Assembly: GCF_006345805.1 (NCBI RefSeq)
Contig: NC_042999.1
Coordinates: 28,148,001 to 28,212,000, forward strand
DNA: 64,000 nt
Reading direction: 5' to 3'
Source of the DNA: Octopus sinensis
Lineage: Eukaryota
Below, in pieces: positions 28,661 through 59,679 of this stretch. The notes below the pieces were generated by a model. That model had not been told where the DNA came from. It saw only the letters and a list, made by a program, of their open reading frames with translations, and ran no database searches. The translations under genes and the position numbers were made by a program. The stretch's first letter is position 1. Each line of letters begins with the position of its first letter.

Positions 28661-28709
28661 GCTTCCTGAAGATTTCTCTTGAATGAAACAGTTCTAGTCC
28701 TGTAGAAGC
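28661..28709 (+). ncRNA. Type I hammerhead ribozyme motif (C3-G8) in a pLTR-like segment (~28520-28795)
   Basis: gcttc-CTGAAGA-tttctcttgaat-GAAA-cag ttctagtc ctg-TA-gaagc; TATAAA upstream, AATAAA downstream, then (TA)n; basal stem II pair mismatched. Confidence 0.7.
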
Positions 28710-28820
28710 TCCTTCTATATAATAAATTAATTTTACTCTGCTATGTATTGAGTACCTTCTTTACTGTGGTTAACCCCGATCAACCCGGGACCTACATATA
28801 TATAATATATATATATACAT

Positions 28821-28900
<80 letters not shown>

Positions 28901-28969
28901 GTATATGTATATGTATATATGTATAGATGTATGTATATGTATATAACTTAGAATAACTTAGAAAGATTT

Positions 28970-29560
28970 TTGGCCAGTATTGGCCCAGGCCATGTCTAAC
29001 TTAATAGCACCACCTGGCGAAGTCTTTCAGTTCAGGATTTGGGCACCAAGGCCCATTCGAGCAGAGAGTTATTGTTTTTGCGGAGACATATCCGGGTGTG
29101 GGTGGTTTGTCCGGTACTGTTTGAAGGAATTTGTCCAAAGACTTCTTGAATTTTGTGTGGTCAGTTTCTTTTTTGACGTGTCCTGGTGTAATGTTGAAGA
29201 GAGCGGGTCCAATTGAGGTGAAATAGTTGTGCCGTATTGTCGTTATGTGATGCGATTTAGATTTTTGTTGTGGACGGATGGCACGTGGTCCAAGCCTTGG
29301 ATGCATTTTGAAGGTGATGCCAACATCATTCGGACAGTGCTGATGGAATATTTTCACATCATACAGATAATGTAGCGTTCACGGCGTCGTTGGAGTGAAT
29401 ACAATTTCAGCTTCTCTAGTCTACCCCAGTAGTCAAGATCTGACATGCCATCTATCTTTTTTGTGATTGACTTTTGGGGAGCCAATTCTCATAATATTTT
29501 GTTTTGTGTAGGGAGACCACAGTGGACAGCAGTATTCAAGGTGGGGTCGGGCAAAAGTGG
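28970..29560 (-). mobile_element. CR1/L2-group LINE 3' end
   Basis: [33 protein letters not shown] and FKKSLDKFLQTVPDKP. Confidence 0.8.
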
Positions 29561-29601
29561 AGAAGAGAAGGAATATATTATTATATTTATATATATATTT
29601 A

Positions 29602-29648
<47 letters not shown>

Positions 29649-29678
29649 ATATGTTGTATATATATATGTGTATATTTG

Positions 29679-29718
<40 letters not shown>

Positions 29719-29771
29719 TGTATGTATATATGTAAATATATATGCATATACATTTCTTTGTATATATAATT

Positions 29772-29810
<39 letters not shown>

Positions 29811-29971
29811 CTGTGTGTGTATTTATGTGTGTTTGTATGCAATTATATTAAGGATATCAAATCCTCTTAAAGGGATGTTACCATACAACTTCATCAGTTA
29901 TATCGAAAGCTGCAGTGAAAATCAAAGTTGTTAGTTTCACATAGATGGATAAGTTTATATAAATATTCTTG

Positions 29972-31848
29972 TATGAGAAAAAAAAAAAGAAATTGGAGAA
30001 ATAAATATATAGGAATGAATTTATTTGAACAAATTCGATTCAGTATAAAATCAAATTCTTTTCACCTACAGCTGTTTCCATACTCAATTCAATTTGAGGA
30101 ATTAAATTAATTTAAATTTTCATATCGAATATCGTAAATTGGGTATATATAAAACATGAAATCCAGTTTATTGTCATGTTCATAGGATAGTCTTAATAAG
30201 GTTAGGACTTGGATTCGTAGGAAAAAACGGACTAATTAAGAATAATTTAGTTGGAACCTTGTAAAACTTTTTTATAAACATTTTATCAAGGAGAAATAGA
30301 AATCATGATATAATTAACACCAGATTTCGCAGAGGTGCATTTCCGGTCTCTAATAACTTGGCTCAGATTGTTTCTTCCCTTAAAGAGTGAAAATTATCTG
30401 ATTTTTATAACAATAATCCCGTAATTAAATTCATCAATTATAATTCTCCTGGAAAAAATGTTAGTAATAAAGCGATTCATAATTCCTCTAATATACTAGG
30501 GGAAGCAATCCACATTAAATCCCATCTCAACCTGAAGAGTATACGTAACACTGTAAATAACAATTACACTGAATGTAAAGTTATAGATCAAAATAATAAT
30601 ACGAATAGTAATGATAATATACACGACGATTACTTGGTTAATATAACTGTTTATTTAAAAATCATTGCAAGCAAAAGAATTTAGTGTGTAGATGTAGAGT
30701 GATGTCTGAAGGTAAGAATTTCTTCTTACATCGGAGCAACGGAAAATTATGTAAGAAAAAAAAAAACGCATCTCTAATCACATTTTCACCATCAGTAAGA
30801 GAAACAATTCATTAGTAAATTTGTTTGGGAATTAAAAGTCAAGAATGTAATGCTTTTCTTTGTAGTGGAAGATTGTAAGTCAGGCTAGTACCTATAAATT
30901 TGGAAACGCTTTTTATTTTCTCTCACGGAGATACTTCTTCAAATCTTGTATCAAGGCGTCGACTCCCGAATGCGAGGTGGGAGACTAGTTTTTCATGTGT
31001 TCACGCCTGTAAATATGTCTTCACAAACTACCATTATATGTAATTTAAAGAATATATTAGGTATAATTGTAAGTTTACTGGAACTCTGAATCAGGCGGTC
31101 TCACTTGATTAATATGTTTACACCTGTAACTAATACAATTAAATTGTTCTTAATAAATATCTTATTAATATTAAAGTATAAATTAAATGGTTAATATGAT
31201 TATAAGGTTTTATGTACAGGTAACAGTAGTATATATTTGTTAAAGGTTACCGAAAATTTAATTTAGGCTTTTACTTTGAGAATATATGATTAATAGCTTA
31301 TGAATGGTTAATTAATTTAAATTAGAGATACAATGTATTAATTTAATATTAGCTTTAACTGTATTAATTTCTTAATTTGTTGATTTGATTTGTTAATATT
31401 TGTTTTCCTAGATTAGTTCGTTCATTTCTTTTCACATTATTGTGCACTAATATCAATGACGTAATATTCAGCTATGGTAATTGTTACACAGTTTTGATTC
31501 GTTATCATTTCGTAGCTTTCAATACTTTAACACACAAATACGCACAGACAAATAAGAATAATTACGGTTTTTTAAATACACCTGTTGCTAAAACTTATAT
31601 ATCTGAGTCTATCAAAAGTCAACCAACGCGTTCGAATGTTGCTCCGTTCTAAGAAATTCTCTCCCCTGACGAAATACCCAATTTACGATATTCGGTATGA
31701 ACATTTAATTTAATTTAATTCCTCAAATTGAATTAATTAGGTATGGAAACAGCTGGAGTTGTAAAGAATTTGATGTTATACTGAATGGAATTTGCTCAAG
31801 TAAATTGATGTCTATATATTAATTTCTCCATTTTCTTTTTTTCTTATA
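29972..31848 (+). mobile_element. Old 5'-truncated PLE with inverted pLTR and decayed GIY-YIG endonuclease (~30645-31030)
   Basis: Diverged inverted repeats at 29975-30146 and 31674-31846; interior peptides HCKQKNLVCRCRV..YIGATEN..RISNH..WKIVSQASTY..NARWE..CVH. Confidence 0.7.
31654..31771 (+). ncRNA. Hammerhead-like motif with large stem II insertion
   Basis: CTGACGA 31666-31672; atacc/ggtat stem II; GAAA 31746-31749; stem III cagct/agttg; TA; aagaattt pairs with aaattct upstream but is offset by ~5 nt. Confidence 0.55.
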
Positions 31849-32141
31849 TATGTGTATGTATGTTTTTATGTATGTATGTATGTATGTATGTATGTATGTA
31901 TGTATGTATGTATGTATGTATGTATGTATGTATGTATTATCTATGTGTATTATCTTTGTGACTGTGTTTGTCCCCACCATCACCACTTGACAACCTGTGT
32001 GGGTCTGTTTATGTTCTCGTAGCTTAGCGATTCGGCACAAGGGACCTAGACTTAAAAAAAATAAGCCCCTGGAGTCTATTTGTCGGACTAAAGCCTTGAA
32101 GGCGATGCTCCAGCATAGTCATATTCAAATGACTGAAAAAG

Positions 32142-32167
<26 letters not shown>

Positions 32168-32172
<5 letters not shown>

Positions 32173-32544
32173 GACTCTCCTATTGAAGATGACGTATGAG
32201 TTAGGGTATACAGGTCGTTAGATTTGCACGTGCTTCTAATGATATGTACTTCTCGGATTACAAAGGCTGCTTGCTGATGAGTCTAGCCTTGGCAGATCAA
32301 TTATATTCGTTTGCTAAAAAGAAGACGAAACTGCAGTACAAGATTAGCTGAGTTGGTAAACGTTTTTGATTTTCACTCCATTTCATGAATTTATCCCCTT
32401 TTTGTGTATCTAGTACTTGCTTCTTTATTTAGGGACCTTTTAATGTACTTATATATGAATAACATATAGTCTAATGACTAATTTGTCTTTTGTGCTTGAT
32501 CACTGGTAATAATAATTTATTTTATTACCCTATTTTACTATGTT

Positions 32545-32545
<1 letters not shown>
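32168..32545 (+). mobile_element. ~380-bp non-coding element (solo pLTR or retrozyme-like) inserted in (TA)n
   Basis: Unique sequence bracketed by (TA)n and centred on a canonical HHR. Confidence 0.6.
32265..32349 (+). ncRNA. Canonical type I hammerhead ribozyme
   Basis: cttg-CTGATGA(32274-80)-gtct...agac-GAAA(32327-30)-ctgcag-TA-caag; all core nucleotides present; palindromic stem III; GUA cleavage triplet. Confidence 0.85.
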
Positions 32546-32621
<76 letters not shown>

Positions 32622-32824
32622 ATATACGTAAATATATATATTACTCGTGTTGTCCCCATCTGCAGTACACGAGGCCTCCGTTGTAGTTGTATGTTATATA
32701 TGTGTATGTATGTTATATGTATGTGTGTGTGTTAGTATATGTACCTGACTTTACCCCACCCCCAACAGTGAAACGCATCGATTTTGAAACGTCACACTAA
32801 TGCATGCTAATTTATTTAGCAGGT

Positions 32825-33238
32825 AACTTATCTTGATGTTTGGTGATTACAAATCTCAAATTTCAAGAATATTTCTTGAGGTTCTTGCAGAATATAGAAT
32901 GGTACGAGCGTCCTCTGGCACTTCAAGAGCCAGCTATATTCGACATTGTTGAAAGCCGTGCTGCAATCTATCCAACAGCTAAATTCGTCTTCCTTACTCT
33001 CACACCTCATTTAATATTCTGCTATCTATATATATAGCAGATCAGAAGTCTCCTTTGATTTCTTGCAACATTTTTGTTCCTCTGGAAATAGATTCACCTT
33101 TTCCAGAAAATTATATACTCCATATACTATGAAACAAGTTAATACATTCCAGAGTAATGTTAAGCTAGTAATAAGTCTACAATTGCTTAAATGCCATCTC
33201 TTTTCTTTGTCCTTCTTTATCAATAATTTCGTTTGATC
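32825..33238 (-). mobile_element. RLE-type LINE RT N-terminal fragment
   Basis: SNCRLITSL (NYRPIT-like), LFPEEQKCC, DLLYI and CWIDCSTAFNNVEYSWL. Confidence 0.7.
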
Positions 33239-33667
33239 ACATGCTTACCACGAAAAAATCCTGTCTATCTGATCTCATGCATAGCTTATCACCGTCATTA
33301 GTTATTGTACTATGAGCAGATAGTATAACTTCTGCCTCATACCTAGATAAATTAGAAATACGGTTCACAAATATAAGTGCCTTATGCAGTAATATTGGAT
33401 TAAAAGTAGAATTATAACCTGAAATATCATATTGCATGAACTTATAGCTATTTTTATTTTCCAAACTTTTGAATCAACGAATATCATCCCAGTGCGTCAG
33501 ACCATAGCATACCTTTAATTATGGATCTTAGAGTTGTTAAGTTTCTATCTACTATATTTTAATAAATCTACCTACACCCGATTTAGATGGGCATATCAGC
33601 CTAACTGTTGAATCACCTTAAGGTTAATTTTATATATACATATATATATATAAATAAATAAAACATA

Positions 33668-33714
<47 letters not shown>

Positions 33715-33744
33715 GTACCTACCTCTACATGTATATATACACGC

Positions 33745-33941
33745 ATATATGAGTACAGGGCACCAAAAAACGTCGGACACAATGAGAAACGAAAACATAG
33801 ACACACACCCAAGGAACTGGACATTTTTCTTAAAAAACAAAAAAATAGAGTACAGGACAAATAACACAAGGAAAACCCTTCTTCAGTCGCCATGGTTTCA
33901 TCTACTCTACGTTTCGAAGGTGAAGGCGAGACGTATCTTCG
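33745..33941 (-). mobile_element. Probable PLE pLTR 3' fragment with the 3' half of an HHR
   Basis: Minus strand gaag...cttc-GAAA-cg-TA-gagt; the 5' core is cut off by (TA)n; flanked by TA tracts. Confidence 0.45.
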
Positions 33942-35216
33942 ATATATATATATATATGCAGGAAAATAGACAATGTATATGTTGCTTACAGTATTTGTTG
34001 ACTTATAGTTTCCCGGTCTTCTGGTTATAGCGTTCTTGTTACTGTTGTTGTAGATATGTATGAGGATAATGTAAGCATTGTGGTAGCAGTGATGGTGATG
34101 GTTTTCGTGGTGGTGGTGGTGGGTGTTTCGATAGTGGCTTTTAGTGTCGGCGGCGGGTACGAATCCTTTGGTTGTCAAAATTATCATCATGGTGGTGAAG
34201 ATTTTGTTTGCCATGATCCTCATTGCTATCCTCATCATCAGGATGATATGATGGTAACAGTGAAATCGAAAATGTTCCAATTGCTTTCTTAACGGATTCA
34301 TACGAGAACATATATGTACGTCAGATATTTCAACACACAACTGTGTATGTAAATTCGTACATCATATATATATATATATACATATATGTGTGTGTGTGTT
34401 TGTGTGCCAGTATGTATGTGTGAATGTGTATATGTATGTATTTATAAGTACATATATATTTGTAAGCGCTTAAGAATGTATGTTTATGCGTGTGTATACC
34501 TGTGTGTGCATGTGTGCGTATAACGAATAAGTATCTTTATATATAATTCCACACACACAAATATATATGTATATATAAGTATGTATATATATATATATAT
34601 ATATTTAGATATATATATATATATACCTTTGTATATTATATGTATATATATATATATATATATTAATATATATATATATATATACCTATGTATATATATA
34701 TATCTATGTATATATATATCTATATATATATCTATATATACATATATATATATAAAAATATGTATATATATACACATAAGATATATAATACTCCTGTTGT
34801 CCCCATCTGCAGTACACGACGCCTCCGGTGTAGTTGTATGTTATATTATCCCAAGTTATTCTAGCTTCATTCCGCCTTGTTATTCTTAAATAAATCATTG
34901 TATTGTGATAAAAACATAATATAAATACACAATGGAATTGTCCAAACTACTATTCGTATATTTTAGGATAATTTACCTTCCCTTCCGACTTGCTTGTTTT
35001 TCTTGAGTTATATTCTTCGTCAATATTTCGCTTCTGTAGTTATATTTATGCGCACTGCACGTGTTTGAGAGAGAGAGTGTGTGTGTGTGTGTGTGCGTGC
35101 GTGCGTGTGTGTGTGTCTGTGTGTGTATGTGAGTGCTTGTGTGTGTTTGTCGCTATGTATGTGTGTATACGATATCTATATCTATCTATCTATCTATTTA
35201 TATATGTATACATATG

Positions 35217-35308
<92 letters not shown>

Positions 35309-35422
35309 TATTATATACACCCCACACTCATATCATGGGTATATAGGTTTATATACATATATATATATACCTATATTTGCACACACATGTATACGTATAT
35401 ATACATAAATATACTTATATGC

Positions 35423-35455
<33 letters not shown>

Positions 35456-35932
35456 ATATATATATATATATATACATACATATATATATGCACACAGATA
35501 CACTCACACAAACACACACACTCACACTCACACAAACACAAAGACACACACACACACACACACACACATGCATATATATAACGCTAGTGTGCTTCCTTTC
35601 ATAGGATAAAATTTTCTGTACAAATATTATATTCCGTTCTCTCGCTCTTTATTTTACAGAGGCAAAGTACTGTAATAAGTCGGTTCTCTATCTCTAATAA
35701 CATATTTATATAGTATTAATGATATGGTGTTTGGTAATAACAGTAATAAAGTAGAATGTCTAAATATTTACTTTGTATCTATGTGTTCCTGAGAATGAGC
35801 GTGCTTGCCTCTGTGTCCCTTTGTTACTGTAAGCCAGCGTACAAGTATTTGAGTGAAAGTATATAAATCCATACAAACAAGATGGCATGAGATTTTAGCT
35901 ATACGAAATGTATAGATAGATAGACCAATATG

Positions 35933-36022
<90 letters not shown>

Positions 36023-36524
36023 ATATTATATCATATTATATTATATTATATTATATATATGTATTTATGTTATATTATATATATATATATTTATATAATA
36101 CAAAATGGGACAAGAACGCAAAACATCAGGACAGCTAGGTGATACAAAAAGGGACAATAAAATATCCAGATAGACGATACAAAAAAACAAGGACGGGTCA
36201 TTCGAAGCTTCTTTCCTCTGTCAAAAACTGGATCATCGTCGCAATCGCGGTTGATTATATATATATACTCAAAATAAGCAACAAGAATAACTTCGGTAAT
36301 TTGGTACGATCGTTTCACGCTACATCATATTATTAAATGTTGTAAGTATTACAACAGTTTTAAAATGATGAGCAATCATCAGCCATTAATAGAAGTTTTC
36401 CATTAATATATAGTTTTCATATCAATTGATAACCTTATAGAGAAGGTAGATATATAGACAAAGATGTCGATTTAAATTATATATATATATTTCTTTTTAT
36501 AGTTTCAGCTCAGAGCTATGGCCA

Positions 36525-37075
36525 TGGTGGTGCACATTCGTTTTGCTACACTGTTATTACTAAGGGCCTCCTCTAATATATGGCACTTGGTGAAGAATGG
36601 ATTTTGATATCGTTACCCTCATTTGCACCGCTTGCTCTGATGTAGGTTCATTTGGGACTCTAGACAGGAAGAGGTCCAGTTTCGACTTGAAAAATACCTA
36701 CATCAGCTTTGTGTAGGTTCCTAAGGCTCTTTGGAAGAGTATTAAAAAGCGGAGGGCTCCTGAAAGACAGGCTGTTGCAATAAATGGTCCTGAAGCACGA
36801 TGGCATTGCTGGGACATTTGTCACTGCAGTGTCAACCCGTTATGGCACTGGTGTAACTTTCAATGCCAAAATTTGGCATAATTCCTTCCAGGATCTTCCA
36901 GATGTATATTACTGCATACCTATCCCGCCTTCGCCCTAGGGAGTAGAGTCTTAGCTTTTTCAGCCTTTCCCAGTTGCTGAGCTGTTGCAATGAGACGATA
37001 TTCTTTGTGTGGCTTCGCTGGATTGTTTTAAGGTCCGCTGTTAATTTTACACTGTTGGGTAGCAATAATCCAGGC
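36525..37075 (-). mobile_element. CR1/L2-group LINE 3' end
   Basis: WERLKKLRLYSLGRRRDRYAVIYIWKILEG and FKSKLDLFL..VPNEP. Confidence 0.8.
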
Positions 37076-37234
37076 GGCTGAGAACGAATGTCCTCTAGAG
37101 GACCATCATCGTTTCCTTTTCCCTTGTTCTGAATGTTCTCAGGATCCATCCATCCAGTCGTTTGCACTTGGCCACCATCCTGGTTATGTGCACTTGGAAA
37201 GAGCATCGTCACTCATGTCGATATACTTATACAA

Positions 37235-37298
<64 letters not shown>

Positions 37299-37316
37299 CA
37301 TATATACATACATATA

Positions 37317-37359
<43 letters not shown>

Positions 37360-38534
37360 TAATTAATATATGTATGTATATATATATAATATATATACTA
37401 TATCTATGTATGCATATATATACATATATATATATATTTATATATGTATATATATTATATATATATATATTTATATATGTATATATATATTATATATATA
37501 TTTATATATATATAATATGTATATTTATATATATATATAAATACATGTGTATATACTTATATATATATAAATATATGTGTCTATATTTATATATATTATA
37601 TGTATATATATGTAAATATATATTAATATATGTATATTTACATATATATATATATTTATATACATACATACATATATATATATATACACTCACACACGCA
37701 CATACAAACGCGAAACCACATATATACTTGTATATGTATATATATGTATGCATATATCTATAAGTGTGTGTGTATGTATGTGTGTGTGCGCGTGTGTGTA
37801 TGTATAACACGTGTCTATATATGATATACATAATTCACCTATAATATACATAATGGATTTATGTATGTGCTTATGTCTGAGTGTGCCTGTGTTTATGTAT
37901 GAGTATGTGTGTACACTGGAAATATTCATATATGTATACACGTGTGTATGCGGGCTTTTATGTATGTGTGTATGCGCTTATCTCTACTTGTATGTCCCCG
38001 TTTTACTGATGCACGCCAGCTTAATTCTATTGTGTGAATATTTACATGTTTGTGAGCTTGGGTGTAAATACACTATAAATACTTTATATACAGATATTTC
38101 GTGATTAACTATGATACATCTCAAATTTGGAAGACTAACAGAACGTAATTGCTGCTGTATAATAAATAATTTCACTCTCCTTCCGCATTGAGTCCGTTTT
38201 CCTGTTAGTTAATTCAAAACATAAAGATTTTTTCCGCTACCTGAACTTAGAAACCTCGCTCACATATACGCATATACACACATGCACAAACAAACGCACA
38301 GACACGAATATAAGTACAGGGGTGGCGTATATTTTAAAGGAAAATATCAAAAATTGATAGTGACTTTGAAGTTTTAGTTGTTGCTGAGTACGTCAAACTG
38401 ATAGTCAAAGGAATCCATCGATCGATGAAAATATCAAAATTATTATCAGCGTTTCCTTTGTAGATATAAATGTAATAATCTAATTGGATGTACTGAATTA
38501 TCGTACAACGTGTGATATTTAAAAAAAAAATATA

Positions 38535-38935: not shown

Positions 38936-39017
38936 ATGCATTAGAAACCTTGGTATTATATGTATGAATGTGTGTATGTATGAGTGTGCATGTTTGTGTG
39001 TATATATATGTACATAT

Positions 39018-39343: not shown

Positions 39344-39455
39344 TGTATGTACATATATAATTTATATGTGACTGTGTGGTAAGAAGCTTGCTTCCCAACC
39401 ACATGTTTCCAGGTTCAGTTCCACTGTGGTAACTCGGACAGGTATATGCTTATAT

Positions 39456-40774: not shown

Positions 40775-40830
<56 letters not shown>

Positions 40831-40833
<3 letters not shown>

Positions 40834-41172
40834 CGAGATGTACTTGCATAGCAAATGACTTGAACCGAGATCTTGTTCCGAAGCAAAAACAATTGCAGGG
40901 TGGGAAAATATTTATAAGACATTAAGAACACACGCACATACAGAAAGTTAGATTCACTTCAACATTTAAATTTTATTTGTGTCAAAATATTTTGTCGCTT
41001 TGAAACCGCGACCTGTTCACTGACAAAACTTCAGCATGAAATTTTGTCAGTGAACAAGTTGCGGTTTCAAAGCGACGAAAATATTTTGACACAAATTAAA
41101 TTTAAATGCTGAAGTGAATTTAACGGCTTTTTGTCTGTTCAATGGTTTATAAACATCTTCCTTGCTGCAACT
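40831..41172. mobile_element. Fold-back (palindromic) non-coding element of two inverted pLTR-like arms
   Basis: Near-perfect arms at ~40944-41030 and 41036-41123, with diverged pairing continuing outward; flanked by (TA)n and (CA)n. Confidence 0.75.
41045..41091 (+). ncRNA. Variant minimal hammerhead with G3-C8 core
   Basis: tgtca-GTGAACA-a-gttgc ggtttcaaa gcgac-GAAA-atat-TT-tgaca; the antisense-arm copy (40980-41025, -) lacks the G of GAAA. Confidence 0.6.
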
Positions 41173-41258: not shown

Positions 41259-41290
<32 letters not shown>

Positions 41291-46639: not shown

Positions 46640-46760
46640 AAATAGTAAAGAGTGAAAAAACTACAGAAGGCTTAAATGTTAAAAAATATATATATTTGCG
46701 TCAATATGTCTGAAGAATATTAGAAAATTTTTTTTTTTTCTCTATAATGACATAATTTAA

Positions 46761-46799
46761 AAGAAAGACCGGTTTCGCGTGTAGCTTTTCAAATTTCTT
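46761..46799 (-). ncRNA. Minimal hammerhead, U3-A8 variant (inverted pLTR copy)
   Basis: Minus strand aagaaa-t-TTGAAAA-gc tacac gc-GAAA-ccgg-TC-tttctt; palindromic ACCGGT stem III. Confidence 0.65.
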
Positions 46800-46953
46800 G
46801 CGACGTTATGTTTATATTGAATAGAGTTTTCGTTATGTTTATGTACAAGAGAGTTCTAAATAAGGGAAGGTAGTGAGTGATTTCTTCCGGTGTAAGGGAG
46901 ATAATCGCTTAAAATTTTTTCCTTTCCCTTGGTGTGAATTTCTCTGTATCAGT

Positions 46954-49938
46954 CCCTCTGTATACCGAGGGACAACCCCTCGAAAATACATTAGATCATT
47001 GGAAGGATACCTGTGAAAAAGAAGAGAGAAATTCTCTCCTGCGCTGGGAGAAAAACATGGACTTCTTCCAAAAATATAGTGCAACTTTCAAAAATGAATT
47101 GGGTACAAATAATCCCTTCCTTAAGAAAATTACAAAAAAAAAAAGAAAAACCAAACAACCCACGAACAACCCCCAACTATCCTCCATACACTAAAAACAG
47201 AAATCACCCACAACCAACCTTTGCAAACCACGCAAGACCTAACAGGGAACTAGCTGACAGAAACTAGCTGACAGACGACGCGTCTATGAAATAAATTACA
47301 CCAAAAACAGAACACACCAACAACATCCTAATACCAGACCCAACCACCATACAGCACAAAACGACACTAGAATAAGAAATACACCACACACAAGTCGCTA
47401 CTACCCCATGAACCAAAATTACTGGTCCCCACTAAACACAAGACAAACGCAAAAAAAACACTATGTCAAGCAACATCCCACAAGCAGTTCGAAACAAAAA
47501 TATTTCTCATACAGAAATTTTACACACACCACAAACAAAAACAACCATAGATTCCCCTACACACAACGATCGGGGGCATCAATACCACCACTCCCCCGAC
47601 CCAATATCACACAACCTCACAGACAACTCATACAAACAAAATTATACCCAACATTTTTCAGCCAGGGACCAGGGACACCAGGACACAGGCTGGAACCCAG
47701 TAATAAGGAAAAACCGAAGATAATCAATCTTTCAACCAAACCTCTTTCTAACATAAAAATTGACATCCTCTCAAAAGGGCTCAAATTTGCACCAACTCCA
47801 CGCAGAGCCAACCTAAATGAACTCAAGGATAATATAACAGAATTTTGCAGAAAATTAAGACTAGCAGAAGCATCAACCATTTTCAATACTGAAGATGAAT
47901 CACTAGTCAAGAACAAAAGTGAACACATCCCACACAGAGGAAGAAATAAAGATCTTGACGAATTCTGTAACCACATTGAGAACTTTCCCTACCATACTAT
48001 ACATAAACAGAAAGTTAACTCAAATTTTAACACTACACAATGGAAAGAACTGATAGAACTTCAAAATGATGAGTATATAACCATTAAGGAAGCAGACAAG
48101 GGAAATGCAGTTGTAATAATGGATACATCATACTACAGAAATCTTGTAATTTCCTTGCTTCACTAATTAAAACCCATGAAAAGGAACTAACAACCAAAGA
48201 GATTGACTTCCTAACAAACTTTAAATGCAAACCTAGCCTTTTCTATGGTCTGCCAAAAATTCATAAAAGTCAAATTATAAATGAAACCATTAAAAAATCA
48301 CCAAAGACATACATACACACACCTAACCCGGGGGAACTAAAACTACGACCCATTGTAGCTGGCCCAACCTGTGAAACACACAGACTAAGTCTACTTATGG
48401 ACATCGTCCTGAAACCCTTCCTTAAACATATCGATAGCCATATCAGAGATGACTTAGATATGTTAAACCACCTTCCAAAAAAAAGCCAAGGAAGAAACAA
48501 TCCTGGTTTCATTTGATGTAGTTAACTTATATACCAGTATACCTCATAATTATGGACTGGAGGCAATACAGTTCTGGTTAGACCAATTTCCGGAAGAAAT
48601 ACCAAAAAGGATCAGTAAAGAATTCATTACTAAATCAATTGAATTCATCCTACACAATAACCACTTCATGTTTGACAATACATTTTACCGTCAAAAATCC
48701 GGAATTGCTATGGGTACAAGGGCAGCACCAGTCATTGCGAACTTAACAATGGGATACATGGAAATAATCATTTACCAGGAATCTTTATCAATCTTTGGAA
48801 ACCCCCTCTCTCAATACATAAAAGAGAATTGGAAACGATTCTTAGACGATTGTTTTATTCTCTGGAATGAAAACACAGATAAACTCCTAAAATTTAAGAA
48901 CCTATTGAACAGCATAAACCCAAATATACAGTTCACAATGGAATACAACCAAAAGGAGCTCCCGTTCTTGGATATACTAATTAAAAAAATTAACCTTAAA
49001 ATAGAAACAGACATTTTTTACAAAGCCACAGACGCCAAACAATAGCTTCTTTTTAATTCATGCCACCCAAGACACACTAAAACAAACATCCCCTTCAACC
49101 TTGCAAGAAGGATATGCACAATAGTGTCAGAACAAAATACCAGGAACTTTAGACTGCAAGAACTCAAAAACACCCTAATTGACAGACATTACCCAGCTCA
49201 ACTCATAGAGGATGGGATCAGACGTGCAACAGAAATCAACATAGAAACTTTAAGAAAAGTTCAACACAACAATACACCTTCCCCGAAAATACTACTTTAC
49301 ACATCTACATACAACCCCAAAAACAAAGAAGCCTTCACCATCATCACCCAGAATTTACCAATACTTCATAAAGACCCCAAATTAAAGGAAATTCTAAACA
49401 TACACAAAATCATTAAAAGCTACAAACAGCCTAAATCACTCAAAAAGATTCTCACAAAGGCAAAATTGTCTTCTGAAATTACGGAGTAAAAAAATGTGGT
49501 AGATCGAACTGTGCAACATGTCCTAACCTGCTAGAAGGATCAGAATTCCTCTTTAAAGAGGGACAGAAATTCAAGATCAAATCTAACTTTACTTGTGCCT
49601 CTGAAAACATAATTTATGTCATAAAATGCTCGGGCTGCCACCAAGACTACGTGGGTTCCACGGGACTATCACTCAGACGTAGATGCACACTGCATCGACA
49701 ACAGTTTGCATTCCCAGAATATAGAATGATACCTTTTAGTGAGCACATTGAGAAATGCGCAAAGCAACTACTACCACAATTTTTAATCTTTCCATTTTAC
49801 CAATGTGCTTTCGGATCATCAACACATATTAGACTAAACAAGGAAACATTCTTCATTGAGAAGTACAAGCCCAGACTCAACCATCCGAATATACTGATAC
49901 AGAGAAATTCACACCAAGGGATGGGAAAACATTTTTAA
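46954..49938 (+). pseudogene. PLE polyprotein (RT, zinc linker, GIY-YIG endonuclease), broken by stops and frameshifts
   Basis: IINLS..LSKGLKFAPTP, EADKGNAVVIMD, FYGLPKIHK, RPIV, SFDVVNLYTSIP, QKSGIAMG, RFLDDCF, LPFLD, SCHP, CGRSNCATC, NIIYVIKCSGCHQDYVGST and PRLN. Confidence 0.92.
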
Positions 49939-50047
49939 GCGATTATCTCCCTTACACCGGAAGAAATCACTCACTACCTTCCCTTATTTAGAACTCTCCT
50001 GTACATAAACATAACGAAAACTCTATTCAATATAAACATAACGTCGC

Positions 50048-50086
50048 AAGAAATTTGAAAAGCTACACGCGAAACCAGTCTTTCTT
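50048..50086 (+). ncRNA. Minimal hammerhead, U3-A8 variant (3' pLTR)
   Basis: aagaaa-t-TTGAAAA(50055-61)-gc tacac gc-GAAA-ccag-TC-tttctt. Confidence 0.6.
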
Positions 50087-50249
50087 TTAAATTATGTCAT
50101 TATAAGAGAAAAAAAAAAAAATTTTCTAATATTCTTCAGACATATTGACGCAAATATATATATTTTTTAACATTTAAGCCTTCTGTAGTTTTTTCACTCT
50201 TTACTATTTTCTATATATTCACCCACGTGCTTTCACAAACCAACTTTCT

Positions 50250-50303
<54 letters not shown>

Positions 50304-50645
50304 AGCGCAGGAGTGGCTGTGTGGTAAGTAGCTTGCTTACGAACCACATGGTTCCGGGTTCAGTCCACTGCGTGGCACTTTGGGCAAGTGTCTTCTACTA
50401 TAGCCTCGGGCCGACCAAAGCCTTGTGAGTGGATTTGGTAGACGGCGTATATATGCATATATATATATATATATATTTGTGTGTGTGTGTGTGTTTGTCC
50501 CGCAACATCGCTTGACAACCGATGGTGGTGTGTTTACCAGCGGTTCGGCAAAAGAGACCGATAGGCTTACAAAGAATAAGTCCTGGGGTCGATTTGCTCG
50601 ACTAAAGGCAGTGCTCCAGCATGGTCGCAGTCAAATGACTGAAAC
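50304..50645 (+). mobile_element. SINE family B with internal deletions
   Basis: Match to 14985-15460. Confidence 0.88.
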
Positions 50646-50845
50646 CAACCGATATTTCATATATCCAGAACAATGCAACACAGGCTCACCACACAATATT
50701 AAACGTTTAAATATGACTTTATGAAATAAAAGCTAAGTATTGTTAAAAAAAATTTAGAACAAAATATGTTTAAAAGAAACAGGGGATAAAGATTTAGAAA
50801 CAACACTTACAACAGAGATAAGAATATAGAAGGCAGAATTAGATA

Positions 50846-51243
50846 TCTTTATATATAAAAGTCAAGTTGTGTGTCTGTCTCCTACGATTTAGATTCCTAA
50901 CTACTCCCACATTTTGCGGTGCAGCTTAACCAAAACCGGGTATCTTATAGTCGTGATTCATATCGAGCCCTTCTGGGCATTAGCGCGCGTCTACAATGAG
51001 TCTACGATTAAAAAAAAATTTACCATAATTTTTTTCCATTTTAATGCATTTTTTCGCTATTATATAAGGGAGATAACTCTCTAAAAATGTCTACGATGAG
51101 TCAACGATTAAAAAAAAAATTACCATTATTTTTTTCCCATTTTTAATGCATTTGTTTTTGCTATTTTTTGGCTATAACTCTCTAAAAATGCTTATATAGT
51201 TATTTCCCTTACAAACCCGAGCAACGCTGGGCGATACTGCTAG
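50846..51243 (+). mobile_element. Non-autonomous Helitron
   Basis: TC...CTAG termini, subterminal hairpin, A/T insertion site, internal tandem duplication; inverse of 23638-24032. Confidence 0.85.
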
Positions 51244-51735
51244 TTAGAACTAAAAGTAACATTGTTAACTGCAACATAAAAGACTGACGTGGAGGTAACA
51301 AGATAAACGCATAAAAATTATTTATACTTATGGTACCTCACTCTTCTTAAATAGAATGTAACTCGACTAGTATTACTCGTTACTTTGGAAAATAACTTTG
51401 CAAGGATACATTTACGCCATGGGCAATATCAATAAGTAAGGCATACATACAAGAATTATAATTTAATTTTTATCAAAATGTTCTGATGTTTATGTAAAGT
51501 GATTTGATCTAGACTAATTTTCGAAAAAAAAATTATTACGTTAAACTAGAATTAAACGAAACAAAAAAGAAAAAAAGCTTTCTCATTTGCATAACTTTTT
51601 CTATAACTACTGTGTCATTTACTCCTGCTTCTCCTCTTGCCACCAAACCTGGCATATGCACTCATCCTGCACCTTTCTATGTGTCTCTTTCTTTACTCTA
51701 TCTCCCCGCCTCTCTCTATGCAATATAAATGGCTG

Positions 51736-52156
51736 GGATCTTTTCGGTTAGAACGGCAGTTTTTAACATAATTTCTAGGTAACTAAAAATTTTAAACTTC
51801 GTATACTGGTAGAATGTGTTTATAAAACATATTTTTCTCTTGGCTTTATTGAGAAAATTCTATAGTTTATAAGATATTTGTTGTTGTTTTTCTTCAATTT
51901 CTGCAATTTCAACCAACCAATGACTGTCTATTGAGGTGAAAACATTCTGTGCCGTATGAATATGTCCCTCGTTTAAGAAACAGATTGGGTTTATTTACAT
52001 TTGTGAAGAAAAAAATATACCCTTTCCCCCACCCCTAACCCTAAACCTAACCCTAAAACAGATTGAAATGCAATAGATCGATACTAGGGTCATAATTATG
52101 GGTGACAATTTCATATGACACCGCTAGAAAAACTGCCGTTCAAACCGAAAAGATCC
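51736..52156 (-). mobile_element. MITE (Merlin-like), second copy
   Basis: GGATCTTTTCGG...CCGAAAAGATCC termini; 8-bp TSD AATGGCTG at 51728-51735 and 52157-52164. Confidence 0.85.
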
Positions 52157-53399
52157 AATGGCTGGGCAAAAATCATCTAATGAACCAATAAGGATATCGG
52201 CTATTATACAGAAATGTAAACTTATAATATCTAACTTCTGTTTGATATAACAAATACTAAAATTATTTATGGTCCCAGAATAAGATTATCCACAGTTCAG
52301 TCCTTACAAGTATGTCATTATAAGTTTTATTTTTCATGACGTGTTCCAGGGATTTTAAATCTGTAAGCTTCATCATCGCAAGCTTATATTTTTCATGACA
52401 TACGTTGCAGTCCTGATTCACTTATGGAAAGCAATTTCCTTGGATAAACTTTATTTTTTTCTTATTTTGTTTTTCATATTTAGAAAACATTCCTGAATTA
52501 GACTTCGTTCAAACTCTTAATTACGTTGAGCCCAGAAGATGACCATAATAGGAAAGAAACTAAATTGCTGGATTTCTGTATTACATTAAAAATGAATTAG
52601 ACATTGAGGATGGGAGTATAAATGTTTATTACACCAATACAATAATAACACGACACGCATCTACAACTATACAACACGCATACACGAACATACACGCATC
52701 ACAATGTTATTGAAACTCAACATTTTTAGAAGTGTCAATCCAAAAATAACTATTATAAAATATTGTAATAATTGAGGTGTTTAAGGGATTTTTGTATACC
52801 TTTTTATCTTGGTTCAAATTACAACCATAAATCAGTGTGATAATATATTTATTAAAACTAGTGTGATATACCCTGGGATCATATTACTCTTCTGAATATT
52901 GTCTCTACGGCAATTCTTGACGTTCATCGTGACACAAAATTGAACCCACTTATGATGTTGCTGAACACAAATAAAGGAAATTGGGTGAGTCAAACATAAC
53001 GACGCTATATATGATAAATATAATAAATTAAAAGAGCAATAGCAGAAAGAATATTTGCTGAAGAAAGTGGAAAGATAAATGATAACAGAGAACTGTTATA
53101 GTAATGATAAAACCGTAGATACAAACAGACAACTAAGCAAAAATAAATATTAATAACAGTTATAGAAAGGGCTGATGTGGAGATAACAGAATAGCTGCAA
53201 GAATAAAGTGGAGCATTGTGATAAAAAAGATAACTGATAAAAGATCGATGCTGGGTTTAACGATAACAGCTCTAATACTGCGATACAGAAAGATGGAAAG
53301 AGACAGACATATTGGAAAAGAAAGAGAAAAGAGTAAGGTCAAAGTCTTTAAACAGGTATTGATATGACAATATTTTATGAGGAATAATATTACAATGTG

Positions 53400-54010
53400 T
53401 AGATTTATATTAAAAACACACTCCTGTTAAATATAACAAGGTGTGAATTCTAAGCTATTAATTCACAGCAATACCCAACTCCTATTAAGTACATCTTATA
53501 ACACCTTACATTAAGTATAATGATAGCCAACACATGTATTAACAGCCGCTGTTAAAAGTAGGGTGCAAGTTTATAACACTTTATTCCTGTTAAATATAAC
53601 GTGGTGTAAAAGTCAGAATATATATGTCTTACTAAGCACAACGAGGCACAAATTATTTACACTTTATAACACCTTATATTAAGAATGAGAATGATACTCG
53701 AGTTGTACATTTCTAAACTCCAACTGCTTTTAAATGCAGGGTATAATTTCATAAAACTTAACTATTGTTGAATATAACAAAGGGTAAATATACAAAACCC
53801 AAGGCCTCTTACATGCAAGACCTTATAACACCTTACTTTAGATATAATAATGATACCCAAGATATACGGTTATAAGCTCCAAATACTGTTAATTACTAGG
53901 AATAAATCTATAACTTTTGACTCCTGTTAAATATAACAACGTGTAAATAAGCAATATCTAAGACCGGTTCCCAAAACTTACTATTGTTGAAGACAACAAC
54001 GTGTAAATAG
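53400..54010. repeat. Degenerate tandem repeat, ~160-177-bp unit, about 3.5 copies
   Basis: CTGTTAAATATAAC-like motif near 53424, 53587, 53765 and 53924; TTATAACACCTTA at ~53496, 53664 and 53823. Confidence 0.75.
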
Positions 54011-54310
54011 CCACTAGTGTTACAAGATAACTAAATAACTCTACAGCAAACCAACAAACGCAAAAACTAAATCCCTCTCAAATAACAACACTTACATCTA
54101 AGAAGGAAAAGCCACATTGGTTAATGAAATCCTGAGTCGACAGAAGGGATTGGGGTGGCTAGGATGGTTTCGATTACAGTTAAGTCCTCTGGGGTAGGTA
54201 TTGATTTCGAGGACTAAACAACACCAACAATCAAGTTGTAGGCCTAAGGCACTACCTCCCCATCTCCCTCGGTCTGTAACCCACCATCGCTATTAATGCC
54301 CATAACCATA

Positions 54311-54911
54311 CCTATTTCTTTTTCTTTACTACCCACAAGGGGTTAAACACAGAGAGGACAAACAAGGACAGACAAATGGATTAAGTCGATTATATCGACA
54401 ACAGTGCGTAGCTGATACTTATTTAACCGACCCCGAAAGGATGAAAGGCAAAGTCGACCTTGGCGGAATTTCAACTCAGAACGTAGTGGCAGACGAAATT
54501 CCTATTTCTTTACTACCCACAAGGGGCTAAACACAGAGAGGACAAACAGGGATAGACAAACGGATTAAGTCGATTATATCGACACCAGTGTGTAACTGGT
54601 ACTTAATCTATCGACCCTGAAAGGATTAAAGGCAAAGTCGACCTCGGCGGAATTTGAACTCAGAACGTAGTGGCAGACGAAATACCTATTTCTTTACTAC
54701 CCACAAGGGGCTAAACACAGTGGACAAACAAGGACAGACAAACGGATTAAGTCGATTATATCGACCCCAGTGCGTAACTGGTACTTAACTTATCGACCAC
54801 GAAAGGATGAAAGGCAAGTCGACCTCGGAGGAATTTGAACTCAGAACGTAACAGCAGACGATATACCGCTAAGCATTTCGCCCGCCGCGCTAACGTTTCT
54901 ACTAGCTCGCT
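54311..54911 (-). mobile_element. SINE family A with three tandem copies of its 3' ~187 bp
   Basis: Units begin CCTATTTCTTT at 54311, 54501 and 54685; single head at ~54865-54911. Confidence 0.9.
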
Positions 54912-55925
54912 ATATATGTATATAGCTATAAAAAAATAGAAGAAAAACGCAATAGAGGACAATAAAACATTCGGACAAATAGACGGTACAAAAGCGGACA
55001 GGAAAAATGAAAATTACAAGGACAAGGAAAAAGTCCGGTCATTCGTGGCCTGCTTTCCTCAGTTAAGTTACCAGAAGGCTTTACTGTTTCGGGTGGTTAT
55101 ACTTTTGAGACAGTTGGATCTAGTTGCCCCCACAAAAAGTCTAAGCTAAAGGCATTAAATTTTTTTGTAAAAAAGCGCTAACGAATGTGTACAGAAACAA
55201 AGACAAGAAACGGAGAACATGGTACACAATCACAAATACAAACAACAAGAGTATAACAACAGGTGTCTTTCGACTGAGAACGAATCAAACTGAGCTGGTG
55301 TGTATGAAATGAAAGCCTAAAGGCAAGAACATTGGAGATAGACATAAGAGATATTGGCGGTCGGCAGTCAGGCCAAGACAGAAAAATTATGGCTGACTGG
55401 ATACTGGTCACATTGACGGAGGAGAGAGGGGTATGGGCAGCGGTTTTGAAGGATTAGAAGAAAACATCAGAGACAAAGGGAAAGGTACAAGAGAGATAAA
55501 GGAGGAGGAAATGTAGGAGTTAAAGAAAGAGAGAGCCAAGAAATGTGTGTGTGAGAGAGAGAGAGAGGAGGAGGAGGAGCGAGAAAAAGAAAAGAAGATG
55601 AAAGCATGAGGGGACTAAAAGAGAGTCGTACAACATTTAGAGACATACTTACAATAAAGTGAGCACAAGTGTGTACGTACGCCGCTATATGTATATATAA
55701 TTATACAAAATGGAACAAAAACGCAATAGAGGACAAAAAACATTCGGACAGATAGACGATACAAAGGCGGCCAGGAGAAAGAACACTTACAAGGACAGGG
55801 AAAAAAATACGGGTCATTCGTGGCCTTCTTTCCTCAGTCAAGTAACCAGAAGTCCTTACTGTTTCGGGCAGTTACACTTGAGGCAGTTCGATCTGGTTGC
55901 CCTCCGCCTAAAGCCTACGCTAAGA
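54912..55925 (-). repeat. Two copies (~54940-55150 and ~55715-55925) of a repeat family also at ~36100-36255; probable pLTR fragments
   Basis: Shared AAACGCAATAGAGGAC...GGTCATTCG...TTTCCTCAGT; minus strand has GAAA-cag-TA but no recognisable CUGANGA in register. Confidence 0.55.
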
Positions 55926-56942
55926 CCATTGGCCATGCCGGGACACCACTTTGGAGAATTTCTTGTCGGAGGAATCGACTCCAGTATTTATTATTTTAAG
56001 TCTGGTACTTATTTTGCGGAACCGCTAAGCTACAGGGACGTAAACACACCAGCACCGGTTGTCAAGTGGTGGTGAGGGACAAATACAGACACAAAGACAC
56101 ACACACACACGCGCGCACACGCACACATAAACACACACAATTTTGTAGTTATAAGAAATAAGAAATGTGCAAGGGATAGGTGACAACTGGTTGAAGAAAC
56201 GAGCCAACGAACGAACGAACGAATCAATTAACCAACCAACCAACCAACTAACCAAGTGTCTGATATGTTAAAGCATTATTTTCTTTTTTCCCTTTCGTTT
56301 TGAAACTCACTCATTGTCCTTTCGAAGTCTTTTCTGTTTGCATAAAACTCTTGCAGGGCTACGATTTCTTTTATTGTACAAACAAATGTGAATTCACAAG
56401 AAACAAAATCTTATGCAGCGAAGTTTCCTCTTGGGGTTATAGGACAAGAACAACTTGTAAATAATTTATTATTAACTGACCAAGGAAGAAAAAGTGCAGA
56501 TTGGGACAGAATGATCTTTAGACTTACAGTGAATATAGCAGCCTCTCAGTTTATGCACACGCACACACACACACACACACACACCACACACACACACACA
56601 CACATATGTACACACACACAGTTACATAATACAAATGTATGTATGTGGTAGCGTGTGTGTGTGTGGTCAGAAACTCTTTAGTGTTCAATGTATTTCTTCT
56701 AGTTTTTAGAAATTTAGAATAAGTATATTCTAGCAAAAATCAAAAATGTATTTTTGTTTTAAAGAGCTTACACATTTCCTCCTGCTCCTCCTCCTGCTCC
56801 TTCTCTTTCTCCTCCACCTCCTCCTCCACCTCCTCCTCCTCCTCCTCATCATCATCATTCTCTTCCTCCGCCTCCTCCACATCATCATCATTCTCCTCCT
56901 CCTCCTCCTCCTCCTTGTAGTCGTCGTCGTCATCGTCATCAA

Positions 56943-56981
<39 letters not shown>

Positions 56982-57249
56982 GTCATCACTTACAATTATC
57001 ACGCTAACCGTCCATCTCACCCCCCCTTTTGTTTCGACGTTAGCTGCCGTGCTCTCTGAGAGGAGACATGATGGAGCAACTCAGAGCTTTTGTTATGCTC
57101 TACAAAAACAGAGTGAGTTTGAGCAAGGGATCTAGCAACTTCTTCCCCTAAAAATGGAATTGATGCACAGTACAGCAAGGAATAGAAATGAAGAACAGAA
57201 GACAATGGCTATATATATATATATCGATAAGAAGTTGAGAAATTCGTAT

Positions 57250-58120
57250 TTTCCCAAAATATGTTCAGCGTAAATGGAGATGTTCAACTGTTTATAGATG
57301 ATCACTTTCTACTAGGTTGTAAATAGGTTACAAAGGAGTGCACTTAAATATCTATAAACACTGTGCGTTCAAATCTTCCGCTTACATTTAAATAAGTTCC
57401 ATGTGCTCCAAAAATTGACCTAACTGTAAATAGGCCCCGTGAATTAGTTCAGTGCGCCTTAACTATACATAGGGCACACAAATTTGGGCAGTCGACACAT
57501 GGTCCCATGTGTTAGTGCAGTTCAATTATCTATGAATAGATTCCATGAGTTAGTGCAGTCCATCTTAGATATACGTAGGCCCAGGCCACATGTATTGGCG
57601 CAGTCTACTTAAATGTAAACAGGTCCCATGTGCTGCTGTAGTCCACCTACCTGTGAACAGACCCCATGTGTTAATGTATTGCTCTTACAAGTCCCATATT
57701 TAGCTGCAGTCCATCTGGCCGTAAATAAATCCCATATGTTGGTGTAGTCCGCAATTAGTTGTAAGTCGGTACTTCTAAGGAAGCTGCCTTCCTTTTAGCC
57801 GCAAGTAGGTGCCATTGTACTACGTGTTGTCCTGTTATCTGTAAAGATGTACCTCTATGGTGCATACATTCTACCTAGCTGTAATACGGTAGCACTGTGG
57901 ATAGGTGCAGTTGTGCTGGTAATGAATAGGTACCCCTGTGAATAAGTACAATCCTTGTAGCTGATAATTAGTATCATCGCAATAGGTACAGATCACCTAA
58001 TTGTAAATATGTACCACGTGGTTATATAATCCACCCAACTGTGAATTATTACTTTGTGGTTATTTAATCTTTCTAAAAGTAAATAGGAATCAGTGGGGGT
58101 ACAATACCCTTGTCAATAAA
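57250..58120. repeat. Highly degenerate ~38-41-bp minisatellite (about 20 units)
   Basis: Recurring TGTAAATAGG-like motif; rough consensus AGCTGTAAATAGGTCCCATGTGTTAGTGCAGTCCACCT. Confidence 0.75.
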
Positions 58121-59231
58121 TAAACTGAATTTCCTTCGTTGGTTTCGACGGTGACCATTCATTTCTTTTTCACTGAACTCCTTTGATCATTAAATTAACA
58201 TGTAAGTAACTGTAAAGGGACGTGTATGAACCTTTTGTGTAATTCTCAGACAAAATTATGGCCACCTAAAGTTCATCCGATGAGCTTCTGTACATTTTCT
58301 GTATACCCAGATCCAATCATAAAGTTTTGTCAATCCTAGGTGAGGATTTTAAAATAAAAAACGATAAGCACTTACCCAAGGTTCCACCGAATGGGATGGA
58401 GCCCAGCACCTCCTGGGTTCGAAGATGGCTTCTTTATATCCTAGCCATGCTTGCGTCTGGACGTACGTACATCTAACTTTGGCAAGTACAGCTTACAGAA
58501 TACCTATACACATAAATAGATGTACGGACATACAGTCACATAACACACATACACGCACACAGAGAAACCACACTAAATGTACACGTCCATTTAGCTGTAC
58601 ATAGGTAGTACGAGCAGTGTAATGTCAACCTGGGTGCCATGAGTCGAACTTGCAGTCGATGGGACTGTGTCAAAAAGGCGGCGAATGTCTCGCAGAATTT
58701 GCCCCAAGTGTCACCGCTCTGTGTTCAAATCTCAGCGAGATCAATTTTATTTTTCATCCTTCCGGAGTTTTTAAAAATAAAATTCACAGTGTTGGAATGA
58801 AGGTACAATTACAATGGGAGACCAAAGTAACCTTGCGGTATTTGTCCCGGCTCTTTTTTGTTCTGAATCTTGGATTAACAGCACCACATGGCATCTTGGG
58901 TATTTTTACCGGGGTCACCATTTTACGCAGTGATTCTAGTAAGGTTTCCGTTTAGAAGATACATTCCTCCCTCTATCCCGCCCACTACTGAGGCCTTAAT
59001 GCATATAAAACACAGACACATCACCACATACTTACACACTGGGTCAAAATGAAGGTTATTGATTTATAACACGTTTTAGAATAACAAGGGAACGTATACT
59101 GATGCGATCACCCAATCGCTAAATGGTTATTGTTTACGAACACCTCAGGTATCATATATTGGTATTTTCTACCATGTACATTTGTATATTCGTGCTACTC
59201 AGAAATCAGTACATGCAACACTCACATACAC

Positions 59232-59282
<51 letters not shown>

Positions 59283-59294
<12 letters not shown>

Positions 59295-59679
59295 AATGAG
59301 GTAATCAGATCGGATGGTTCATATTTATAGATATTTATTTATACATTACATTTTTTACATATATATCATATCATTCAGATCATATCATTCGGATTAGCGC
59401 TTTCTCCCAATCGAGTGGGGTTTTCAAATCAAATCAATTCCTTGTGGGTAATTTGAACATTTTATAGTTTCGTAGTAGTGGTGGGGAGGAATAATTGATT
59501 TGATTTGAAAACCCACTCGATTGGGAGAAAGCGCTAATCCGAATGATATGATCTGAATGATATGATATATATGTAAAAAATGTAATATATAAATAAATAT
59601 CTATAAATATGAACCATCCGATCTGATTACCTCATTTTTTCTAATATATAATACCTGTACATCATCTCCAAACCTTCCA

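Follow-up and report, generated by a model that had tools for sequence, protein, structure and literature searches.

Hammerhead motifs and Penelope-like elements in the window

We analysed a 64,000-nt window of the 2.72-Gb genome of Octopus sinensis (G000:C3:28148001-28212000; unlabelled coordinates below are positions in this window), across which microsatellites and repeats are abundant and whose repeat content is cephalopod-like in appearance. A first-pass annotation had described six hammerhead ribozyme (HHR) motifs in it and proposed that positions 3 and 8 of their cores covary. Direct inspection confirmed the six core heptamers, at 28666, 31666, 32274, 41050, 50055 and 59505. In what follows the core pair is written N3-N8, and the predicted cut falls after N17. 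Scanning the window with a strict descriptor of the type I HHR layout that allowed all 16 N3/N8 combinations yielded four matches, three with a Watson-Crick pair (28666, 32274 and 41050) and one with A-C (33312), whereas 40 local dinucleotide shuffles averaged 1.0 matches each, 0.175 of them Watson-Crick. A relaxed descriptor recovered the same three Watson-Crick motifs and added two intact minus-strand twins at 46792 and 59427, which the first-pass annotation had overlooked; the A-C match was lost, and we attribute it to chance. The descriptors passed over the motifs at 31666, 50055 and 59505, all of them damaged copies. No hammerhead in the window reached the Rfam Hammerhead_1 gathering score of 34 bits, 32274 being the only one among the matches listed (24.9 bits). 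An Rfam MIR2646 match at 40954-41117 (88 of 245 bits) merely reflected the fold-back around 41050.

The region 46700-50150 is a near-complete, frameshifted Penelope-like element (PLE) whose inverted ends each bear a U3-A8 motif. Its frameshifted open reading frame (ORF; 47258..49938, + strand) spans reverse transcriptase (RT), thumb, a CX4CX2C linker and, at the C terminus, a GIY-YIG domain (RVT_1, E=1.7e-07, above the cut-off; GIY-YIG, E=0.015, below the cut-off). The minimal HHR downstream (50048..50086, +) has an extra U before U3, a 2-bp stem II and a broken palindrome, with CCAG in place of CCGG, and its intact twin (46760..46800, –; core 46792) lies in the inverted 5' pseudo-long terminal repeat (pLTR). 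A second minimal U3-A8 HHR (59502..59539, +) forms the right arm of a fold-back at 59281-59650. It carries palindromic AGCGCU and a mismatch at 10.1/11.1, lacks one stem II base and has a stem I of only 3 bp; its intact twin occupies 59393..59430 (–; core 59427). The minimal type I HHR with a G3-C8 pair (41045..41091, +) has an extra base at 9/10.1, G10.1-C11.1, palindromic AAUAUU and U17, with a predicted cut after U41086. The left arm of its fold-back (40947..41032, –) has a G3-C8 core at 41020 and a deleted G12.

Three motifs carry the C3-G8 pair. The first (type I; 28660..28710, +) has a U10.1·U11.1 mismatch, a 4-bp hairpin as stem III and a predicted cut after A28704. A young PLE family has this HHR at its 3' end and a microsatellite-rich 3' untranslated region (UTR) at ~26955-28800. 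The locus matches L218 and L092 at 90.7% over 1,526 nt, and these two bear RT and GIY-YIG frames; at L109, RT/endonuclease (EN) matches of 98% lie inverted, adjoining a 28666-type HHR. The long UTR separates this HHR from an RT and GIY-YIG frame that is different in type. The motif was identical in 24 of 24 aligned copies, and no compensatory stem change was seen among them. The second type I motif (31653..31772, +) has a long stem II, A·G at 10.1/11.1 and, in its family, the palindrome ACAGCUGU; the window copy is broken by a G at 31756 where the family has U16.1. An inverted, 5'-truncated partner (30029..30146, –) lacks the core and retains GAAA-CAGCUG-UA. Upstream, at 30700..31000 (+), a three-frame translation reads YIGATEN...SKFVWELK...WKIVSQASTYK, which we take to be a decayed GIY-YIG remnant. 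A PLE frame next to locus L154 was rejected as the parent of this family, as the shared DNA begins only after the frame.

The third C3-G8 motif (32270..32342, +) is a canonical type I HHR with a palindromic stem III and a predicted cut after A32338. Judged by its sequence, its family is a retrozyme-like, non-coding tandem unit of ~435 nt with one HHR per unit, present in partial tandems (period 434-436 nt in L132/L134 and L136). The unit lies at 32200-32520 of the window, recurs in L132 and L136 and has at least 1,144 candidates. No protein match was found in 25 loci of the family. In its alignment 93.5% of cells were paired, a level reached by 1 of 500 shuffles, and a U-A/C-G double change in stem I occurred in 7 of 20 rows. 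The family resembles the non-LTR (long terminal repeat) retrozymes of bioRxiv 10.64898/2026.07.22.740005 in its short non-coding unit, type I HHR and tandem repeats, but it is seen here only as partial tandems and in genomic DNA alone (here and below, statements about published work hold for the parts of each source that were covered).

Families and their core pairs across the genome

All six motifs are repetitive, their families having between 178 and 2,633 first-look candidates in the genome. Match counts were obtained from profile and pattern searches of the genome, the latter set against control patterns. For each family 24-29 further matches were aligned, in some cases including the two arms of the same fold-back; only the best 40 candidates were scored, which biases the aligned set towards copies like the one in the window. 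The pair count in the first 100 G3-C8 matches was made by eye on a positional list that includes both arms of fold-backs. The majority state was the full type I layout, the topology that the first-pass annotation had described for the motifs, in six of six families, though several of the window copies are damaged. GAAA, the A15.1-U16.1 pair and H17 were present in all six majorities, and the core read N3-UGA-N7-N8-A with C-G, U-A or G-C at 3-8, so that three of the six families depart from the literal CUGANGA. Stems I, II and III surround the core with stem I open, weakly so in 59505, whose stem I has only 3 bp, and in 50055 with its 2-bp stem II and extra U. The palindromic stem III that had been described as frequent is found in most families, but not in 28666 with its hairpin.

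Four of the six families lie at the 3' ends of PLEs with GIY-YIG frames, one follows the decayed GIY-YIG remnant, and one is the retrozyme-like unit, which agrees with the earlier assignment to PLE-type hammerheads. RT with a C-terminal GIY-YIG domain was found upstream of the HHR for 50055, 41050 (L212), 28666 (L218) and an additional A3-U8 family (L217). Most genomic copies of these families are dead 3' fragments. Copies truncated at the 5' end and carrying there an inverted copy of the 3' end, often by microsatellites, were observed here, a pattern also described in PMC8557442.

In the 50055 lineage (852 matches versus 0 in the control, with a pattern that included the extra U before U3), N3 was U in 98 of the first 100 matches, N8 was A in 80 and G in 20 and never C or U, and loop II varied. 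PLE protein matches lay beside the motif in 30 of 30 loci, and no compensatory stem changes were seen. The 59505 lineage (1,228 matches versus 0) behaved alike: N3 was U in 99 of the first 100, and N8 was A in 90, G in 10 and never C or U. Here N7 was A, C or U, stem II showed the compensatory swap UCCA/UGGA to and from CCCA/UGGG, and 10.1/11.1 was mostly mismatched. In 5 of 30 loci a GIY-YIG match was located ~1.25 kb upstream of the motif, and L219 and L065 together provided thumb and EN only. Both U3 lineages thus contain U3·G8 wobble subfamilies. Two more U3-A8 motifs belong to other families (L087:1297-1340 and L010:2692); that of L087 is a single copy with one extra A, after a PLE thumb and GIY-YIG frame 59% identical to the window's.

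The G3-C8 pattern TGTCANTGANNANGTYGC gave 7,883 genome matches versus 14 for the reversed control, with G3-C8 in 87 of the first 100; as the first-pass annotation had anticipated, searches for CUGANGA alone would miss thousands of motifs. In 63 aligned arms of this family (55 with G-C), non-majority letters made up 4.9% of the core compared to 15.7% of loop II and 7.4% of the 3' flank. G3-C8 was thus kept in most arms. In contigs assembled from four of four runs under four organism labels, no core variant reached 6%, with depth dropping towards the core; in-motif variants in these contigs lay in loop II or preserved wobble pairing, as did the three listed stem variants. Stem changes in this family were one-sided wobbles only. 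With A at 2.1 excluded, a general G3-C8 pattern matched no more often than its control (708 versus 741 matches), and its recurring matches were the known family and another repeat, presumably a short interspersed nuclear element (SINE)-like one.

Most G3-C8 copies are short 3' ends or fold-backs. The parent PLE, at L212, comprises an RT-thumb-GIY-YIG frame of 510 codons with 57-59% identity to the window PLE, followed by a UTR in common with L210 (90% over 1,009 nt) and then the G3-C8 motif. L212 was the only one of seven loci, picked for the longest shared upstream sequence, to carry the parent ORF; the parent was absent between nearby copies in four of four loci and in the 1.5-kb flanks of 30 loci. 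Truncations at the 5' end were not concentrated at the predicted cut; judged by eye, the majority of the first 100 copies began 10-45 nt upstream of the core. A second small G3-C8 family, with a 2-bp stem II, ACCGGU stem III, A17 and a 7-bp stem I (L222), comprises three motifs in two places (L221:1143-1181 and L222; G000:C5:25943976 and C2:69495886), with no ORF in the flanks fetched of either locus.

An 892-kb scan of 195 loci with N3 and N8 free gave 21 matches outside the six families, 19 of them Watson-Crick (16 C-G, 2 A-U from one place counted twice, 1 U-A), plus one A·C and one A·G, one of these last two being a mutated member of a C3-G8 family. The A-U descriptor match by itself is at chance level, because the null gave 1.75 matches per shuffle, 1.5 of these A-U. 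A pattern built on the A3-U8 motif gave 180 matches versus 0 in the control, with A3-U8 in 81 of 100, and a wider pattern gave 1,129 versus 24, with A3-U8 in 82 of 100. The motif (L080:453-484, +; L217:3521-3556, in G000:C3:37356000-37359800) has a 2-bp stem II and the ACCGGU stem III common to the 50055 family, and flanks an element with RT and GIY-YIG. The L217 element is split at 1664-2164 by a helicase-like fragment, which we assume to be of Helitron type. Matches were unequally divided between forward and reverse strands (111 versus 69; 592 versus 537 for the wider pattern), possibly a search artefact. The covariation is therefore wider than claimed, as A3-U8 and U3·G8 occur beside C-G, U-A and G-C.

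As a control for mismatched cores, we searched the A3-U8 architecture with U excluded at both N3 and N8. The 65 matches consisted of 59 scattered mismatches, three C-G and three G-C, and no family with a mismatched 3-8 consensus was found in this one architecture. A candidate sister family with U3·G8 or C3-G8 and a GC-AAU-GC stem II was not counted as a ribozyme, as its stem I was poor. N17 was almost never G (0/100 in the 50055 lineage; 2/100 with an A3-U8 pattern that left N17 free). A preference of N17 for bases unable to pair with N3 would fit G3 (U17, A17) and A3 (C17), but it fails for the U3 families, where A17 is common.

The density of variants had been overstated in part: they number thousands genome-wide, but they are a minority. 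In a blind 400-kb sample of 40 stretches, all six strict matches were C3-G8 (four matches in eight shuffles), and a profile search of the same sample found three G3-C8-family, two 59505-related and no 50055-family matches. The variant cores are real but a minority, and this window is unusually rich in them. About a dozen more C3-G8 type I candidates with palindromic or hairpin stem III were noted in flanks and blind samples (L003, L011, L028, L030, L071, L090, L101, L119, L153, L170, L174, L197, L198 and L204).

Other repeats in the window include RT fragments on both strands at 26020-26900 (RVT_1, E=0.014 at 26536-26880, –), arranged like a 5'-inverted PLE, and a further decayed RT piece at 33306-33479 (–). 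Pieces of long interspersed nuclear elements lie at 908-2252, 11649-12554 (zf-RVT, E=6e-06 at 11649) and 17935-18442 by (AAT)n arrays, and a 184-bp tandem repeat from a SINE-like family of very high abundance occurs at 477-842 and, in the opposite orientation, at 54314-54861.

Relatedness of the elements and readings of the paired changes

In a tree of thumb and EN segments, the elements with 50055 (U-A), G3-C8, A3-U8 and L087 (U-A) motifs clustered with support 100/99, their internal order being unresolved, and 59505 fell outside. Pairwise amino-acid identities inside this clade are 45-59%. The six families are therefore not unrelated or independent, as they had been called: since the U-A, G-C and A-U elements share one PLE clade, the 3-8 differences among them are phylogenetic double changes rather than independent origins, and the pair must have changed on both sides at least twice there. 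The linkers read CGRSNCATC (50055), CNRPNCGIC (G3-C8) and CGDGRCGTC (59505) and match the CX2-5CxxC pattern of Neptune PLEs. A CX4CX2C-type linker between RT and EN is the Neptune-type motif of PMC8557442, and by this motif the variant-core elements would be classed as Neptune-type.

We consider it likely that the six motifs are hammerhead-layout sequences at PLE ends, together with one retrozyme-like derivative, in which positions 3 and 8 change together because the RNA of each element must still fold and slowly self-cleave. The pattern suggests selection for catalysis. Established hammerhead chemistry gives the 3-8 pair the task of placing residue 8 for acid catalysis and allows paired swaps, at a reduced rate (PMC8495972). 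The partial activity of a PLE HHR engineered to C3G/G8C (PMC11167929) favours this reading. A tandem or read-through transcript of the element would be cut slowly after N17, probably in a dimer that the palindromic stem III holds together or with help from the element's protein, as in the Anolis element PAc (PMC11167929). Selection would act on master elements, and the pair types may interconvert by way of a U3·G8 wobble, or via mismatched intermediates that left no family behind.

Several observations weigh against this reading. None of eight monomers folded better than shuffles (z –1.5 to +1.4). Two-copy folds gave the dimer HHR arrangement for the A3-U8 motif only, the others pairing differently, and the window copies of 41050 and 59505 are predicted to form long hairpins that exclude the HHR. 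The whole core is kept in only 35 of 63 G3-C8-family arms, and G12, which lies in a CpG, is A in 12 of them. Throughout the 50055 lineage, stem I and U3 are separated by an additional U. The 10.1/11.1 pair is mismatched (U·U, A·G, C·A, G·A, C·C) in four families (28673/28684, 31673/31745, 59512/59526 and a 32274 subfamily). The p-values overstate independence because copies and subfamilies are related, and the tree holds six partial proteins, midpoint-rooted, with no reference elements. From published work, no RNA-seq ends were reported at the cut site in Anolis (PMC11167929), and Naiad PLEs thrive without canonical HHRs (PMC8557442).

Some of these observations would also be expected if the fold were retained as a structural or protein-binding RNA element of PLEs, or as a very weak ribozyme, with the 3-8 pair serving folding and cleavage not selected. 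The extra U, 2-bp stem II and 10.1/11.1 mismatches of the variant families are atypical. PLE minimal HHRs have low activity (PMC4209133), and the G8C change cuts the rate 10^5-fold, C3G rescuing it only partly (PMC8495972). In PAc, HHR-dead mutants insert unimpaired in vitro, and cleavage needed the element's protein (PMC11167929). We nevertheless regard this alternative as unlikely: the 3-8 pair is generally held to be part of the catalytically active fold, consistent with PMC3884650, N17 is almost never G among the matches listed, and G12, A13, A14 and A15.1-U16.1 are kept. It is very improbable that the variant cores are neutral changes in dead-ribozyme masters, amplified by retrotransposition, with the Watson-Crick pattern due to chance or to the picking of candidates: high copy number does reflect amplification rather than ribozyme function, the first-pass annotation picked paired examples, the lone A-U match was at chance level and the sister family's stem I was unconvincing, but 19 of the 21 matches outside the original families were Watson-Crick with all 16 combinations allowed and one exception a mutated C3-G8 copy, no mismatched family emerged from the control, and at least two double changes occurred inside one clade while loops and N7 varied freely.

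Beyond selection on the fold, one Neptune-type lineage may have visited all Watson-Crick states of the 3-8 pair, the G3-C8 and A3-U8 motifs being working, amplified ribozymes of active elements. We hold this stronger proposal tentatively and lean slightly against it.

Published hammerheads and significance

Small PLE HHR variants reportedly cleave as dimers, as the title of the 2017 work of Lünse, Weinberg and Breaker has it; by that title, they resemble the motifs described here as PLE-associated minimal hammerheads, with a dimer action of the kind proposed here.

The closest described relatives are the minimal HHRs of PLE pLTRs (Cervera and de la Peña 2014, PMC4209133), most of which lack the loop 1-loop 2 contact. 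Points in common are the position near the 3' end, the short palindromic stem III, an additional base at 9/10.1 together with G10.1-C11.1, the occurrence of motifs in pairs on opposite strands and a U3-A8 family (~1,300 hits in Schistosoma mansoni there). Of these, the additional base, G10.1-C11.1 and the palindromic stem III agree with the published consensus in features outside the core pattern used for searching. Fig. S3 of PMC4209133 shows 56 representatives, including U3-A8 and one U3·G8 (Saccoglossus); none of the 56 is G3-C8, A3-U8 or from a cephalopod. In the present genome every Watson-Crick pair is represented, and one clade holds three of the four. The natural core variants of Perreault et al. 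2011 (PMC3088659) likewise include U3-A8, a 2-bp stem II, U10.1·U11.1 and single-base core insertions. Among 3-8 swaps only U3-A8 is named there, as rare single examples, whereas the families described here number hundreds to thousands of copies. The Poseidon PLE PAc of Anolis (PMC11167929) similarly combines RT, a C-terminal GIY-YIG domain and an HHR in the pLTR; G3-C8 was engineered there and is natural here, and the variant-core elements here have a CX4CX2C linker.

Whether these families were already catalogued, which the first-pass annotation left undecided, has a divided answer. For U3-A8, occurrences in PLEs are published (PMC4209133), as are natural examples more widely (PMC3088659). 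No natural G3-C8 or A3-U8 turned up in the literature covered, which also includes PMC3884650, PMC8557442, PMC6962438, PMC6765202, PMC6257768, PMC10085705 and PMC6155905 and leaves out Lünse 2017 (the main gap) and Przybilski and Hammann 2007; figure images, the last supplement part of PMC4209133 and the supplements of PMC3088659 and PMC8557442 are likewise excluded, and such variants could stand there. The G3-C8 and A3-U8 forms thus appear to be unreported in nature and, if they are working ribozymes, would be the first natural hammerhead families with these pairs.

In this genome, some ten thousand motifs escape the standard descriptors and Rfam, and if the variants are ribozymes, censuses based on CUGANGA overlook whole classes of animal ribozymes. 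The near-identical scaffolds with G-C, A-U, U-A and U·G provide natural constructs for testing which surroundings permit a swapped pair. PLE hammerheads are weak in vitro, dispensable for reconstituted insertion and absent from Naiads. In this one clade, a core tertiary pair changed on both sides repeatedly and mismatches founded no family in the architecture searched, as expected if the active fold is selected; if G3-C8 and A3-U8 are indeed working ribozymes of active elements, this would be evolutionary proof of in vivo selection on the catalytic fold of PLE ribozymes.

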